A DNA stretch of 64,000 bases from Candidatus Aenigmatarchaeota archaeon (GTDB lineage Archaea; Aenigmatarchaeota; Aenigmatarchaeia; CG10238-14), in NCBI GenBank assembly GCA_030018415.1, contig JASEGC010000001.1, positions 129,971 through 193,970 on the forward strand, in the 5' to 3' direction. Both the position numbers and the translations under genes were made by a program. Below are positions 7,858 through 14,545 of the stretch, one piece after another (position 1 is the first letter of the stretch; the number at the start of each line of letters is the position of its first letter). Below the pieces are notes generated by a model that ran no database searches, was not told where the DNA came from, and worked only from the letters and a program-made list of their open reading frames with translations.

Positions 7858-8596
7858 TTGAAAATTTTAGGCATCGATGAAGCTGGCAGTGAACATAAGT
7901 CTTAAAATCATAGGCTTATGCTCGCCAAAAGGAGCAATCATCGGTCCACTAGTCATCTGCGGATTAATGACAGACGAAAAGAATGAAAAAAAGTTAAAGG
8001 AAATTGGAGTTAAAGATTCCAAACAACTAACCCCAAAAAGAAGGGAAGGACTTGTAAAGGAAATAGAGAAAATCGCTACTCATATCGTCGTTCTTCGCAT
8101 TCCCGCTTGCAAAATCGATGCCAACAGGAAAAGGGGAATAAACCTTAATCAGATTGAAGCTTTGAAGATGGCGGAGATAATAAACTTACTTGAACCAGAT
8201 AAAGCCATAGTGGATGCACCAAGCTTCAACACGAGTAAATTCAGGGATTACCTTCTGTCAAAAATAGAAAACAAAAATTTTAAGTTAATATGCGAGAATT
8301 ATGCAGATGAAAATTATCCTGTGGTGAGTGCTGCTTCCATCATAGCCAAGGTCAACCGTGATGAAAATATTGAAGAATTGAAGAGGAAAGTTGGTTTTAA
8401 TTTTGGTGTCGGTTATAGTCATGATCCCCTCACCATAGAATTCTTGAATAAGCTAACAAAAGAAAACAGAGGGAAATTGCCTACATACGTAAGAAATACA
8501 TGGGATACCGTCAAGAGAATAAAGAAGGAATACAGCCAGCCGAGAATTTTAAGTTTCTTTAAACAAATGTTCAAGAAGAAAAAAACTACTTCTTAA
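7858..8596 (+). CDS. rnhB: Ribonuclease HII, interrupted by a 40-nt insert (exon 1 7858-7889, exon 2 7930-8596 under the intron model)
   Basis: A TTG start sits 8 nt after GAGGTG. Exon 1 reads MKILGIDEAG, and exon 2 reads GAIIGPLVICG...DSKQL...DAPS...ASIIAK. The catalytic GIDEAG lies in a different frame from the rest. Confidence 0.75.
7890..7929 (+). other. Putative BHB-like (relaxed HBh') mRNA intron in rnhB
   Basis: 4-bp helix 7884-7887/7924-7927; 3-nt bulge AGT 7888-7890; 11-bp stem 7891-7901/7913-7923 with an 11-nt loop; opposite bulge AAA 7928-7930. Removal restores GIDEAGRGAIIGPLV. Confidence 0.55.
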
Positions 8597-9620
8597 ACCA
8601 ATCTTCAAGCCTTGGTTGTATTCCTTGTTTCTTGATTTCAAGCAATCTGTTCACAGCAGTTTCAACTCTTTCCCTGGAGAAATCATGTTCTTCAACCATC
8701 AACTCGAATATACTATCTCTATCAGGTTCCTCCCATTCGATCTTATATTTTTCTAAGACTGGGGGGTTGAGGAAGAAATCGTATATCGTATGAGGGTCTA
8801 TATCAAACTTCCATTCAACCTGTTTTAAGATGTCGTCTAAACTCTTGTATTCTTTGATGATCTTGAGCGCTGTTTTTGGGCCTATGCCTTTTATGCCTTG
8901 CGGGTTGTAATCTGTTCCAACAAGTATGCCTAATATGATTAACTGTTCTCTCGTTATTCCAAGCTCGGATAGAACTCTTTCTAGCTCTATTATTTCGGGT
9001 TTTATTTCGATGTATGCCTCTTGTCTCGGTAGTTTTCTTTTTCCAGTTATCGAGAGGTTTCTTACTAGGCGAGGAGATGAAAAAAGGAGTGCGTCGTAGT
9101 CCTGAGAGCCTGAATAATCAACATCCCCTTCCTTACACATATGTGCACACTGTGCCTCTCCTTCTGATTTTGCCTGGATCCAAGGTATGCCCATCGCATC
9201 AAGAATTTTTTTACTTTCTTCCATCATATCACTCGTTAATTTTAGTGCTCCCTGTGCATACACCATTATATCTTCTTTTCTTCCTTCTTTCACAGCTTCT
9301 TCCCATTTTTTTCTAGCCTCCTTTCTTGCTTCCTCCCTTTCTTCGATCGTCCTTTTCTTGAATTTTGGTGGTTCTCCATCGTAGACATAGACAGGCTTGA
9401 TCCCGGCGTCTATCAATTTTATTGTCCTATAGAAAAGACCAGACAGATGCGAAGTTATCCTACCCTTGCTATCTCTAAGAGGTTCTCCAGTATCTTTTTG
9501 TCTTATTATAGAAAGGAATTGGAATAGAGTGTTGTAAGCATCGATGGCTATTTTTTTTCCTGATAAATTTTCGAGCTCTACCTCAACTTTAGGAACAATC
9601 GCAGAAATCTGTACTCCCAT
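8586..9620 (-). CDS. fen: Flap endonuclease FEN1
   Basis: MGVQISAIVPK...KKIAIDAYNTLFQFLS N-domain, I-domain GEAQCA and the H3TH GIKGIGPKTALK motif. Confidence 0.95.
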   Translation of the reverse strand: MGVQISAIVPKVEVELENLSGKKIAIDAYNTLFQFLSIIRQKDTGEPLRDSKGRITSHLSGLFYRTIKLIDAGIKPVYVYDGEPPKFKKRTIEEREEARKEARKKWEEAVKEGRKEDIMVYAQGALKLTSDMMEESKKILDAMGIPWIQAKSEGEAQCAHMCKEGDVDYSGSQDYDALLFSSPRLVRNLSITGKRKLPRQEAYIEIKPEIIELERVLSELGITREQLIILGILVGTDYNPQGIKGIGPKTALKIIKEYKSLDDILKQVEWKFDIDPHTIYDFFLNPPVLEKYKIEWEEPDRDSIFELMVEEHDFSRERVETAVNRLLEIKKQGIQPRLEDWFKK

Positions 9621-9678
9621 ATGATCAGTAACAATTACTCATTAAAAGTATAAGATACTTCAAAAAAAAATGAATTTA

Positions 9679-9957
9679 TTATTTCTTCTTACCCTTTTTC
9701 TCTTTCTTCTCTTCCATCTTTAGTTCTTTCTCGATCCTCCACTCGTCCAATTCTAGCCATATGATGAAGAGTCCTACCACGAGAACAAATGGTGGAATTA
9801 TTCCCTGCAACACTGTCCAAAGTGATGCTCGTAGATGAAGTTCATACGGTGTTCCCTGGAAAAAATGTGCCCCTGGATACATGAATTCATATGCATACAA
9901 ACCGAGTGGAATCACTAAGAGGATTATACCAATCAACAGTTTAACTGCCGGATGCAT
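9679..9957 (-). CDS. Small 2-TM membrane protein with lysine-rich tail
   Basis: Two hydrophobic helices followed by KELKMEEKKEKKGKKK. Confidence 0.4.
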   Translation of the reverse strand: MHPAVKLLIGIILLVIPLGLYAYEFMYPGAHFFQGTPYELHLRASLWTVLQGIIPPFVLVVGLFIIWLELDEWRIEKELKMEEKKEKKGKKK

Positions 9958-10041
9958 CCTATTTCACCACCTATCTTCTTATTTAACGGTTTAATATTTA
10001 AATTTACCGTGATATGGGTTTAAGTATATATCGGTGGTTTC

Positions 10042-10536
10042 ATGGCGAAAGGATTATATCAACACATTAAGAAAACATGGAGAGAAACTAAGATGGCAAG
10101 AGATTTGAAAAGAGAAAGACTGATTAAATGGAGAAAAGAGCCCAGATTTGAGAAAGTAGAGAAGCCCACCAGACTGGACAGAGCTAGAGCATTGGGGTAT
10201 AAAGCAAAGAAAGGCTTTGTGATAGTGCGTGGAAGATTAAAAAAAGGAGGAAGAAGAAGACAACTCTATGGAAGAGGAGGAAGAAAACCATCAAAGGCAG
10301 GATTAACAAGTTTCACTCCAAAAAAGGCTCTTCAATCAATACTCGAAGGAAGAGTCCAGAGAAAATATCCAAACTTAGAGGTTCTGGGAAGTTATCCTGT
10401 GGGTGAAGATGGTGTATATAAGTGGTTTGAGGTTATAATGGTTGATCCAATGAACCCAGTTATCAAGAAGGATAAAAACATGAAATGGATAACTGAAAAA
10501 CAGCACAGAAGAAGAGTTTTTAGGAGATCTGGTTAA
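10042..10536 (+). CDS. rpl15e: Ribosomal protein L15e
   Basis: PTRLDRARALGYKAKKGFVIVRGRLKKGGRR and YKWFEVIMVDP motifs; GGTGG Shine-Dalgarno 5 nt upstream. Confidence 0.9.
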   Translation: MAKGLYQHIKKTWRETKMARDLKRERLIKWRKEPRFEKVEKPTRLDRARALGYKAKKGFVIVRGRLKKGGRRRQLYGRGGRKPSKAGLTSFTPKKALQSILEGRVQRKYPNLEVLGSYPVGEDGVYKWFEVIMVDPMNPVIKKDKNMKWITEKQHRRRVFRRSG

Positions 10537-13095: not shown

Positions 13096-13182
13096 AGTAT
13101 TCTCCTCTCTACGGTCGTCGCGTAGTTATCCTCTTCTTAAATAGACTTAAATAATTTACTTGTTTTCTTAATAACGGGTAAA

Positions 13183-13620
13183 ATGAAGAAATACAATCTT
13201 TCACAAGAGCAATTACAAACACTGTTTGACTTATTCGATAGTGGGATGAAACCAAAAGAAGTTGCTCAAAAAACCGGTATTGAGTATAAGGCAGTAGTTT
13301 CTGTAAAAAAACATCAATATTTAGCCAAAAAGAAAGGATTCAAATCATTAACTGAATACCGAGAAGATTTAGCTCGTAGTAAGAGCATTAACGTTATAAT
13401 TAATATCTTGTATGAAAAGGAAGCATCAGCAGAAGAAATTGCTCAAGGAATAAGAGAAAAATACGGTTTTTCAATAAAATCTTCTACGATAGAAAGAAAA
13501 ATAAAACAATTCCAATTTACTGATCATTGGGTTACTTTTAATGGGCAAACTAAAAAATATAAATTAGATAAAGAACATTGGTTTGTTAACTCTATGATGC
13601 AAGAATTGTTTGAAGAATAG
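13183..13620 (+). CDS. Small helix-turn-helix protein (resolvase/transposase-type N-terminal HTH)
   Basis: LSQEQLQTLFDLFDSGMKPKEVAQKTGIEYKAV resembles HTH_Tnp/resolvase-type HTH, with a second helical domain after it. No catalytic domain. A T6 run follows the stop. Confidence 0.45.
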   Translation: MKKYNLSQEQLQTLFDLFDSGMKPKEVAQKTGIEYKAVVSVKKHQYLAKKKGFKSLTEYREDLARSKSINVIINILYEKEASAEEIAQGIREKYGFSIKSSTIERKIKQFQFTDHWVTFNGQTKKYKLDKEHWFVNSMMQELFEE

Positions 13621-13635
13621 TTTTTTACATGTTCC

Positions 13636-13648
13636 GGCGCTCGAACCC
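13636..13648. repeat. Right arm of GC-rich imperfect inverted repeat (GGCGCTCGAACCC)
   Basis: Near reverse complement of 13083-13095. The two arms bracket the HTH ORF. Confidence 0.6.
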
Positions 13649-13804
13649 TACAAAATTTACAACATACAAACATTAATTTCATTAGAACTATAAACTTCAC
13701 TCACTTATTAAAATATAAAAAGTTAATAGAAATATTGAAATATAAAAGTCAAAACTAATTTTATTTAAAGCATAATTAAAATAATTTAGAAGAAGGTGAA
13801 TGTT

Positions 13805-14545
13805 ATGCCCGATATGTTACCTGAATATATGGGCTATGACCGCACAAATAGGTAAAGTTTACGCTTTCCTAGTGCATTAGCAGTATTCAGCCCAGATGGA
13901 CGTTTGTTTCAAGTAGAATATGCAAAAGAAGCAGTGAAGAAAGGAACAACATCAGTAGGCTTAGTCTGTAGAGATGGAGTTATTTTGGGAACTGTAAAAC
14001 AGATAACAGGATTGATGGTTCCAAACCCTCTTGAAAAATTATTCCAGATAGACGAACACATAGGAGCTGTTGCAGCAGGTTTACTCGCTGATGCCAGGAT
14101 ATTAATAAACCAACTCATGATAAAGGCCCAAATCAACAGAATAACCTATGAAGAACCTATCGATGTGTGGTCCTTGTCCAGAACTTTAGGCGATAGAATG
14201 CAACTCTCTACGCTGTACGCGGGTTTAAGACCATTCGGTGTATCCTTCCTTGTCGGTGGTGTTGATTCTACCGGTTTACATCTGATAGAAGCAGACCCTT
14301 CTGGAATGTTGTACGAATGGAAAGCTTATGCAATAGGCAGGGGTGCAACTCTTGCAAACAAGATATTCAAAGATAGATATAGGAATGATATGGATGAAAC
14401 AACGGCCTTGAAACTAGTGATAGATGTGATTAAAAAAGTGGAGAAAACACCAGACTTTGGGAGGGCTTTGGACATAGCAATCGTGAGAGAAAAAGAGAAG
14501 AAGTTCAAAAAACTAACAGAAGATCAGATTAGAAAATTCCTGTGA
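13805..14545 (+). CDS. psmA: Proteasome alpha subunit, interrupted by a 30-nt insert carrying an in-frame TAA (exon 1 13805-13847, exon 2 13878-14545 under the intron model)
   Basis: ATG sits 5 nt after GGTGA. Exon 1 is MPDMLPEYMGYDRT and exon 2 is [29 protein letters not shown]. As written, a TAA stop at 13853-13855 separates YDR from FSPDGRL. Confidence 0.8.
13848..13877 (+). other. Putative BHB-like (relaxed HBh') mRNA intron in psmA
   Basis: 4-bp helix GCAC 13842-13845/GTGC 13872-13875; 3-nt bulge AAA 13846-13848; inner stem TAGG/CCTA plus AAAG/CTTT with a 6-nt loop; opposite unpaired ATT 13876-13878. Removal gives [21 protein letters not shown]. Confidence 0.55.

Follow-up and report, generated by a model that had tools for sequence, protein, structure and literature searches.

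Candidate relaxed bulge-helix-bulge introns at the 5' ends of rnhB and psmA in Aenigmarchaeota

Inserts in rnhB and psmA

The stretch of DNA analysed here, referred to as the window, covers 64 kb of a Candidatus Aenigmatarchaeota archaeon (positions 129,971 to 193,970 of contig JASEGC010000001.1, assembly GCA_030018415.1). It is AT-rich (36% G+C) and carries archaeal core genes, two of which, rnhB, encoding RNase HII, and psmA, encoding the proteasome alpha subunit, are each interrupted close to the start of the coding sequence (CDS) by a short insert. Coordinates are those of the window, and all features of these two genes are on the + strand.

Exon 1 of rnhB (7858-7889) starts with TTG, 6 nt downstream of a Shine-Dalgarno-like sequence (GAGGTGGG, 7844-7851, read from the sequence), and encodes M/L-KILGIDEAG along with the first two bases of an Arg codon. 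It is followed by a frame-shifting insert of 40 nt (7890-7929) and by exon 2 (7930-8596), which ends at the stop codon. Left unspliced, the frame from TTG 7858 reads LKILGIDEAG and then continues into nonsense and a stop, and removal of 7890-7929 gives an open frame of 232 amino acids (aa), MKILGIDEAGRGAIIGPLVICG…, with GIDEAGRG across a junction that lies 32 nt into the CDS, inside the Arg codon (AG|A). The predicted spliced RNase HII aligns with the structures of the Pyrococcus and Thermococcus enzymes without gaps from residue 1 (1uax, E 1.5e-43), and the junction-spanning peptide expected of the spliced products is …DEAGRGAIIGPL….

Exon 1 of psmA (13805-13847) starts with ATG, downstream of a Shine-Dalgarno-like GGTGA (13795-13799, also read from the sequence), and encodes MPDMLPEYMGYDRT and the first base of an Ile codon; the insert of 30 nt (13848-13877) contains an in-frame UAA, and exon 2 (13878-14545) ends at the stop codon. 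The unspliced frame from ATG 13805 is MPDMLPEYMGYDRTNR, terminated by a stop. Without 13848-13877 the gene has an open frame of 236 aa with YDRTIAVF across the junction, 43 nt into the CDS, and the predicted product matches proteasome alpha structures from end to end, with no gap at the junction (9s34, E 2.4e-68).

The earlier note on this DNA, made from the sequence alone, had warned that such inserts would mislead gene calling, and both public records bear this out. The rnhB record (P0001, 239 aa) starts at a wrong ATG (7877) in the frame of exon 2 and so acquires an artefactual N-terminus, MKLAVNISLKIIGLCSPKGAIIGP…, and the psmA record (P0122, 213 aa) is missing the N-terminal domain, PF10584 being absent from the truncated calls.

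The same note had proposed a single layout for the two inserts, consisting of a 4-bp helix between exon 1 and the 3' end of the insert, a 3-nt bulge, a hairpin, and three unpaired nucleotides, and this layout is present in both. In rnhB, the 5' strand of the central helix (UGGC, 7884-7887) belongs to the exon and faces GCCA (7924-7927) in the insert; the 5' bulge is AGU (7888-7890, predicted cut between 7889 and 7890), the hairpin internal to the insert (helix h') occupies 7891-7923, its inner sequence folding at -9.3 kcal/mol with both ends paired, and the 3' bulge is AAA (7928-7930, predicted cut between 7929 and 7930), with an outer helix of 1 bp beyond. In psmA, the exon strand is GCAC (13842-13845), made of the wobble base of an Arg codon and the bases of a Thr codon, and faces GUGC (13872-13875) in the insert; the 5' bulge is AAA (13846-13848, predicted cut between 13847 and 13848), the hairpin (h') occupies 13849-13871, and the 3' bulge is AUU (13876-13878, predicted cut between 13877 and 13878), with an outer helix of 0 bp directly beyond. 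The central helix is thus exactly 4 bp in both cases, the 5' bulge is closed by helices on both sides, and the 3' site falls 3 nt after the helix. The claim that the last 4 nt of exon and insert pair with each other was right about a 4-bp pairing but not in its wording, as the paired tetranucleotides are at positions -6 to -3, both ending two bases before the respective junction.

A cut after the second nucleotide of each bulge, as the note had proposed, restores the frame in both genes along with the consensus residues, Arg in GIDEAGRG and Ile in YDRTIAVF; for rnhB, the cut was placed by requiring the frame to be restored and by the cleavage known to occur ahead of the third bulge nucleotide (PMC12397907). 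When a short local sequence is folded, the minimum-energy structure of either gene is exactly the one resembling the motif known as bulge-helix-bulge (BHB).

Other classes of intervening elements do not fit the inserts. Group I and group II self-splicing introns were rejected on size (20-40 nt, as against a few hundred nt for a ribozyme core), and Rfam gave no match in the insert region at the gathering threshold. Inteins were rejected as well, as the rnhB insert shifts the frame and the psmA insert contains a stop codon.

Interrupted and uninterrupted genes in relatives

To collect relatives of rnhB, one genome per archaeal species was scanned with two RNase HII peptides taken from the C-terminal half of the protein, a search that is blind to the 5' end, and this resulted in 80 loci. 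The gene is uninterrupted in most Aenigmarchaeota, and a short insert near the start is present in eight species representatives (L006, L007, L009, L010, L013, L018, L022, and L044), with four more (L085-L088) reached through proteins with odd N-termini. These inserts are at three sites, the Arg codon of GRG split as AG|A (the site of the window), the same codon split as A|GA, and DE|AG. The exon 1 motif ILG[IL]DE[AS]G is kept in all the relatives found through the C-terminal part alone. The hairpins are unrelated in sequence between groups, and yet the layout is identical in every insert, the helix of the relatives being UGGC or UGGU facing GCCA. The DE|AG inserts are only 20-23 nt long, and their stems covary (UUGC/GCAA, CCUCU/AGAGG, CCUUCU/AGAAGG). 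In a joint MAFFT alignment of the rnhB constructs the two Arg-codon classes were displaced by one column, because they differ by 1 nt in position, and pairs were therefore counted by a script in structural register.

For psmA, N-truncated versions among the 120 closest homologues were limited to the window's own population and to P0215 (locus L081). The latter has an insert at the same site as the window, in which GUAC/GUAC replaces GCAC/GUGC. A pattern scan of metagenomes, requiring the exon 1 motif, a gap of 18-48 nt, and FSPDG, recovered 19 further psmA loci, all with the T|I junction, and these loci likewise conserve the stretch (MP.[IM][LV]PEY) that precedes the search pattern. Some of the genes are interrupted more than once. 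One example is presented by L090, L092, L093, and L107, with three inserts each, at EY|M (20-32 nt), T|I (27-34 nt), and QV|E (30-31 nt), within ~85 nt of CDS. Another is L096, with two inserts on a contig that ends just past the second, and a third is L103, in which three inserts can be recognized by eye, two of them with a clean motif. L097 and L108 may carry an additional relaxed insert near PE|(Y/N)MG.

In total, related DPANN genomes and metagenome contigs yielded 38 distinct inserts of 20-40 nt, distributed over three sites each in rnhB and psmA, six in all; the most frequent length is 31 nt, and the bulges are A-rich. The hairpins have 2-11 closing pairs, an inner helix h' closing the 5' bulge is present, and a cut after the second nucleotide of each bulge is predicted from sequence to restore both frame and consensus residue at all six sites. 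The earlier placement of the inserts within the first 45 nt of the CDS is correct for the two loci of the window (32 and 43 nt) but is not general, as a psmA insert is found ~82 nt into the CDS in relatives; all six sites are within the first ~85 nt.

The pairing can be assessed at the T|I site, where the 5' strand of the helix is exon and the 3' strand keeps a constant distance to exon 2, so that the alignment is anchored by coding sequence and not by predicted structure. Across 16 distinct sequences, 95.1% of cells are paired; shuffling lowers this to 71.7% (none of 500 shuffles came up to 95.1%), and displacing the partner by 1-3 columns lowers it to 26-50%. The second pair of the helix, which includes the wobble base of the Arg codon, occurs in all four Watson-Crick combinations (GC in seven, AU in five, UA in three, and CG in one of the 16), and the T|I hairpin shows double changes at all five closing pairs across relatives. 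When 38 distinct constructs from the six sites are pooled, 96.5% of pairs form, compared with 30-42% in slid registers, and the 4-bp helix is perfect in 36 of 39 distinct introns, the other three retaining three of four pairs, with the mismatch at the outermost pair.

The bare geometry (4 bp, 3 nt, and two closing pairs) is common, with ~18,000 matches on each strand of the window (0.0021 for every position and span), and a random hairpin of the window has a 4-bp helix in the right register in 2.4% of cases. The proviso of the earlier note, that the geometry might be no better than expected of random hairpins, thus applies to the geometry alone, which is not significant; what stands is that the geometry coincides exactly with the excision required by homology, at both loci of the window and at every further locus found without the use of structure.

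As to empty sites, the closest syntenic relatives, L083 and L084, are collinear with the window from TBP to SMC, with psmA 89% identical, and both of their genes are uninterrupted (rnhB 235 aa, psmA 236 aa). The psmA insert is not an assembly artefact, as 11.3 kb of the window (13198-24545) were assembled with 100% identity from an independent run, SRR23186779 (L082). The psmA intron is present in genes 50-79% identical to that of the window but absent in closer relatives, at 89%, 72%, and 70% (it is absent in L083, L084, L004, and L088), and L088 possesses the rnhB intron without the psmA intron. With the intron present in distant and absent in closer relatives, the distribution is patchy, as has been described for cbf5, and we infer that it reflects repeated gain and/or loss at the six sites.

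Probable splicing and its alternatives

The inserts in rnhB and psmA are very probably relaxed BHB introns, which the splicing endonuclease and RtcB presumably remove. Splicing of the two mRNAs, proposed in the earlier note, is strongly backed by the covariation and by the uninterrupted orthologues. What makes an RNA a substrate of the archaeal RNA-splicing endonuclease is a pair of 3-nt bulges with a 4-bp helix between them (PMC6379350, PMC5829648), and in the crystal structure of the ARMAN-2 enzyme with RNA the scissile phosphate lies before the third nucleotide of the bulge (PMC12397907), which is the very cut that the reading frames of rnhB and psmA require.

In the transcript, four nucleotides of exon 1 pair with four nucleotides near the 3' end of the intron and create a BHB-like structure, in which EndA would cut before the third nucleotide of each bulge; RtcB would then join the exons and probably circularise the intron of 20-40 nt. 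The catalytic DEAGRG motif in RNase HII and the YDRxI.VFSPDG motif at the N-terminus of the proteasome alpha subunit would be encoded by the spliced mRNAs only, and the unspliced mRNAs would produce peptides of 15 and 16 residues. The clustering of the introns at the 5' end may have two reasons: an unspliced message would give rise to such a short peptide and to no long truncated protein, and the exon strand of the helix, placed in strongly conserved codons, would be a stable pairing partner.

A number of observations count against this interpretation. The outer, exon-exon helix h of the canonical hBHBh' motif is missing or 0-2 bp long in most introns (over 39 introns, 0 bp in 15, 1 bp in 5, 2 bp in 15, and 3 or more in 4), which places the introns of rnhB and psmA in the relaxed HBh' or bulge-helix-loop (BHL) class and not in the strict one. 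Relaxed motifs need an enzyme of broad specificity, (alpha-beta)2, epsilon2, or possibly the loop-bearing alpha4 of DPANN (PMC6379350, PMC5829648), and relaxed substrates are reportedly left uncut by strict enzymes of the alpha4 or alpha'2 type, so that an EndA of broad specificity must be assumed. Genes for EndA and RtcB were not found in the window or in the Aenigmarchaeota loci examined, and a motif search combined with phmmer over the ORFs (open reading frames) of the loci detected EndA only in a locus of Micrarchaeota (L058), along with a weak match in L063, from an uncultured archaeon. As a rule, an archaeal genome has genes for both the splicing endonuclease and RtcB. Proteins of the spliced form were not found for either rnhB or psmA in the protein collection. 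With longer flanks, the minimum-energy fold of rnhB is a competing structure, and four distinct inserts, in L007, L095, L099, and L103, have one mismatch in the helix (the insert of L106 is the same as that of L099; L007 was parsed by hand and is outside the count of 39 introns). The pooled pairing statistic is in part circular, as the finder demanded the helix and two closing pairs, a circularity from which the exon-anchored T|I alignment is free.

Three alternatives were weighed. One would retain RNA splicing at these structures but assign it to a nuclease and a ligase other than EndA and RtcB, as might be suspected from a relaxed motif without an outer helix. We consider it very unlikely, since a 4-bp helix, 3-nt bulges, and a cut before the third bulge nucleotide are the specific signature of an EndA substrate (PMC6379350, PMC12397907), relaxed motifs are known substrates of broad-specificity EndAs, and a link has been drawn between disrupted tRNA genes and DPANN EndAs that bear an extra loop (PMC5829648). 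Less probable again is gene disruption, by which small palindromic DNA insertions would have left pseudogenes, or genes expressed only from downstream starts. The N-truncated or wrong-frame products given by gene callers are what it would lead one to expect, and the genome is rich in selfish elements (three inteins, free-standing LAGLIDADG genes), but exon 1 keeps its start, ribosome-binding site, frame, and conserved residues across proteins only 50-79% identical, which would not be expected of a detached fragment, the length and the position of the insert always permit exact restoration, and target-site duplications are not visible. Moreover, loss of exon 1 would deprive RNase HII of the catalytic DE residues and the alpha subunit of PF10584, its conserved N-terminal domain. 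The least credible is translational bypassing, with ribosomes hopping over the insert and no RNA splicing, as they bypass a 50-nt gap in gene 60 of phage T4: the inserts are short and hairpin-bearing, with a stop a few codons past the junction, loosely like gene 60, but matching take-off and landing codons are absent at both loci as read from the sequence, the rnhB junction is inside a codon, three hops within 85 nt would be needed in some psmA genes, and the covariation of an exon base with a base at the 3' end of the insert, in exact BHB register, is not predicted.

Relaxed BHB introns in rnhB and psmA would have several relatives among known systems. The closest is the BHB intron in the pre-mRNA of cbf5, encoding a pseudouridine synthase, in Crenarchaeota (Watanabe 2002; Yoshinari 2006; Yokobori 2009, PMC2738675), likewise a short intron inside a protein-coding gene, patchy among relatives, which has been read as gain and loss, and with its removal attributed to the tRNA-splicing endonuclease. 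Unlike cbf5, the hosts described here are rnhB and psmA, the phylum is Aenigmarchaeota, of the DPANN, and the introns occupy six sites, spread over two genes and all at the very start of the CDS, with as many as three in a single gene inside 85 nt. Another example is the BHB intron in the 5' untranslated region (UTR) of Haloferax volcanii HVO_1309, also an mRNA substrate of an archaeal splicing endonuclease, whose removal is linked to efficient expression (Schwarz 2020, PMC7714728). That intron is in an untranslated leader, whereas those of rnhB and psmA interrupt the reading frame, and splicing would therefore be required to make the protein at all. The BHB introns of tRNA and rRNA share the geometry of a 4-bp helix and 3-nt bulges, the position of the cut, and a comparable size (11-175 nt in tRNA; PMC2738675). 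They differ in that the hosts here are mRNAs without a tRNA body and most introns are without the outer helix (HBh' or BHL). A more distant parallel is with HAC1/XBP1, where short introns are excised from mRNA independently of the spliceosome and by proteins only, with ligation of the RtcB type and with the encoded protein altered by splicing, as would be the case here. In eukaryotes HAC1/XBP1 splicing is carried out by Ire1 together with a tRNA ligase or RtcB; the Ire1 nuclease, the two stem-loops with 7-nt loops, and the regulation by stress set it apart.

A study of 2020 named cbf5 as the only other mRNA example besides the HVO_1309 5' UTR (PMC7714728), and the three cbf5 references given above recur in papers of 2018 and 2025; reviews up to 2020-2025 still treat cbf5 as the sole case in a coding sequence. 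In our literature search BHB introns in coding sequences were found only for crenarchaeal cbf5, though most subscription journals were outside its coverage and an earlier description is possible; nothing relevant was found on introns in Aenigmarchaeota or DPANN, or on BHB motifs in connection with the proteasome or RNase HII. What we describe is best seen as a known mechanism in host genes and in a lineage that are new for it, together with strongly covarying pairs and genes that hold several introns. For more than 20 years BHB introns in coding sequences have been represented by one gene family, cbf5, in one phylum, and rnhB and psmA would add two essential genes from a different superphylum, six insertion sites, up to three introns per gene, and a codon wobble base that covaries with an intron base. 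The archaeal splicing endonuclease would then act in vivo on a wider range of substrates than thought, and comparative material has become available on the gain, loss, and positioning of protein-only introns. On the practical side, standard gene callers mis-annotate rnhB and psmA, which can skew what is concluded about the completeness and metabolism of DPANN genome bins.

The EndA-like match in Micrarchaeota deserves a separate mention. In L058 (Candidatus Fermentimicrarchaeum limneticum), a frame of 386 codons at 8469-9627 (+) contains the EndA catalytic motif (GFKFGTHFRVY…HSVRK), its length suggesting a three-unit enzyme of the epsilon2 type. The frame is ~370 nt upstream of rnhB (at 10001), and its position next to a gene that hosts introns in a sister lineage may be a coincidence.

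Range of host genes and other elements of the window

From two cases in 64 kb, the earlier note had expected many more across the genome, and had proposed to check whether other short or missing core genes are rescued by the same rule. Neither was borne out by what could be tested: no further case was found among the 74 ORFs of the window or among ~315 testable neighbouring ORFs of the relatives, and a descriptor search combined with an ORF-fusion filter rescued no other ORF in the window, producing sensible proteins only for rnhB and psmA. The descriptor search by itself was useless, given its ~18,000 matches per strand. The lengths of the 21 genes of the syntenic block match those of the relative, except for the two host genes. 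Among 50 ORFs outside the block, 40 were screened against Pfam for truncation, and three intein genes were checked separately. The screen of the 40 detected no N-terminal truncation except in one methyltransferase fragment (ORF 1917-2132, -, in the region 1640-2360), which matches only positions 46-94 of Methyltransf_11 and whose C-terminal continuation is in another frame. The fragment was rejected as an intron host, as no upstream SAM-binding motif is present in three frames and the BHB rule does not rescue it, and it is probably a decayed pseudogene. A search for hidden in-frame introns, under strict settings and at 20-40 nt, showed no excess in the sense strand (37 candidates, versus 38 antisense). 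A perfect G+C-rich hairpin at 22183-22209 (-), GACGCCUAAACUUAGGCGUU, of -10.4 kcal/mol, is found inside ORF 21818-22642, with a weak BHB-like register that has two G-U pairs in the helix; it was rejected as an intron because the length of the ORF equals that of the relative (274 versus 276 aa).

A homology search free of descriptors, in which a conserved upstream peptide had to be displaced by 10-200 nt (10-350 nt in the first run), covered 107 sequences, the 106 loci and the window, with 377 testable ORFs in 56 DPANN-like sequences, and detected inserts only in rnhB and psmA; the sample is biased, every locus having been chosen for rnhB or psmA, and stop-free in-frame introns without a homologue would be missed. 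Even so, with ~315 neighbouring genes devoid of an insert, the data argue against a high uniform density and for a small number of host sites used repeatedly, and rnhB and psmA look less like a random sample than like genes that host introns recurrently.

A broader proposal is that Aenigmarchaeota and related DPANN regularly rely on the tRNA-splicing machinery to splice mRNAs, that this has been selected as part of how certain core genes are expressed, and that it is not a one-off; the proposal seems to us unlikely, if still worth considering. If it were true, mini-introns would repeatedly colonise or persist in the first ~85 nt, where an unspliced transcript yields a harmless short peptide, protein output would be coupled to the activity of EndA and RtcB in a prokaryotic analogue of gating of the HAC1/XBP1 type, and many DPANN core genes considered truncated would be annotation artefacts.

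As to the setting, the gene order is radical S-adenosylmethionine (SAM) protein, rnhB, FEN1, a small membrane protein, L15e, Rpp30, a LAGLIDADG ORF, Pop5, a 145-aa ORF, and psmA, with SBDS, Rrp4, Rrp41, and Rrp42 downstream of psmA, and this is the neighbourhood of the archaeal exosome/proteasome superoperon. The free-standing LAGLIDADG ORF between Rpp30 and Pop5 (LAGLIDADG_3 and HTH_5, 409 aa, 11476-12705, +) is preceded by an ORF of 49 aa, the whole region being 11330-12705 (+). In L083 and L084, where it is not present at this position, Rpp30 and Pop5 are only 33 nt apart, and a similar ORF of 411 aa (HTH_5 and LAGLIDADG) is found between GatD and GatE on the opposite strand. It looks like a mobile gene of the homing endonuclease kind.

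The gap between Pop5 and psmA (13065-13804, +) carries ~740 nt that are extra compared to L083 and L084, whose gap is 14 nt, and includes the 145-aa ORF (13183-13620), which is without a confident Pfam family. Imperfect G+C-rich inverted repeats (13074-13095 and 13636-13657; 22 nt, 77% complementary) flank this ORF and do not form a BHB; Rfam gave no match for the G+C-rich region 13000-13830 at E up to 1. The insertion may be a small mobile element.

Inteins with a LAGLIDADG domain are present in three proteins, SMC (23669-27856, +), a CoA-binding protein resembling succinyl-CoA ligase (45593-48343, -), and an ATPase of the T2SSE type (59976-63728, +). With three inteins, two introns, and a free-standing LAGLIDADG gene, the window is unusually rich in intervening and selfish elements. 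ARAGORN detected no tRNA gene in the window, though it may miss disrupted or intron-bearing tRNA genes, and over 55 related loci, tried as a positive control for tRNA introns in the lineage, it found two tRNAs, both intron-less. The sole Rfam match in the window at the gathering threshold is the signal recognition particle (SRP) RNA (49847-50120). Finally, a LigD-like ATP-dependent DNA ligase (323 aa) and Ku (263 aa), with a 101-aa ORF between them (40757-42823, -), constitute an end-joining pair of the bacterial type in a small DPANN genome.

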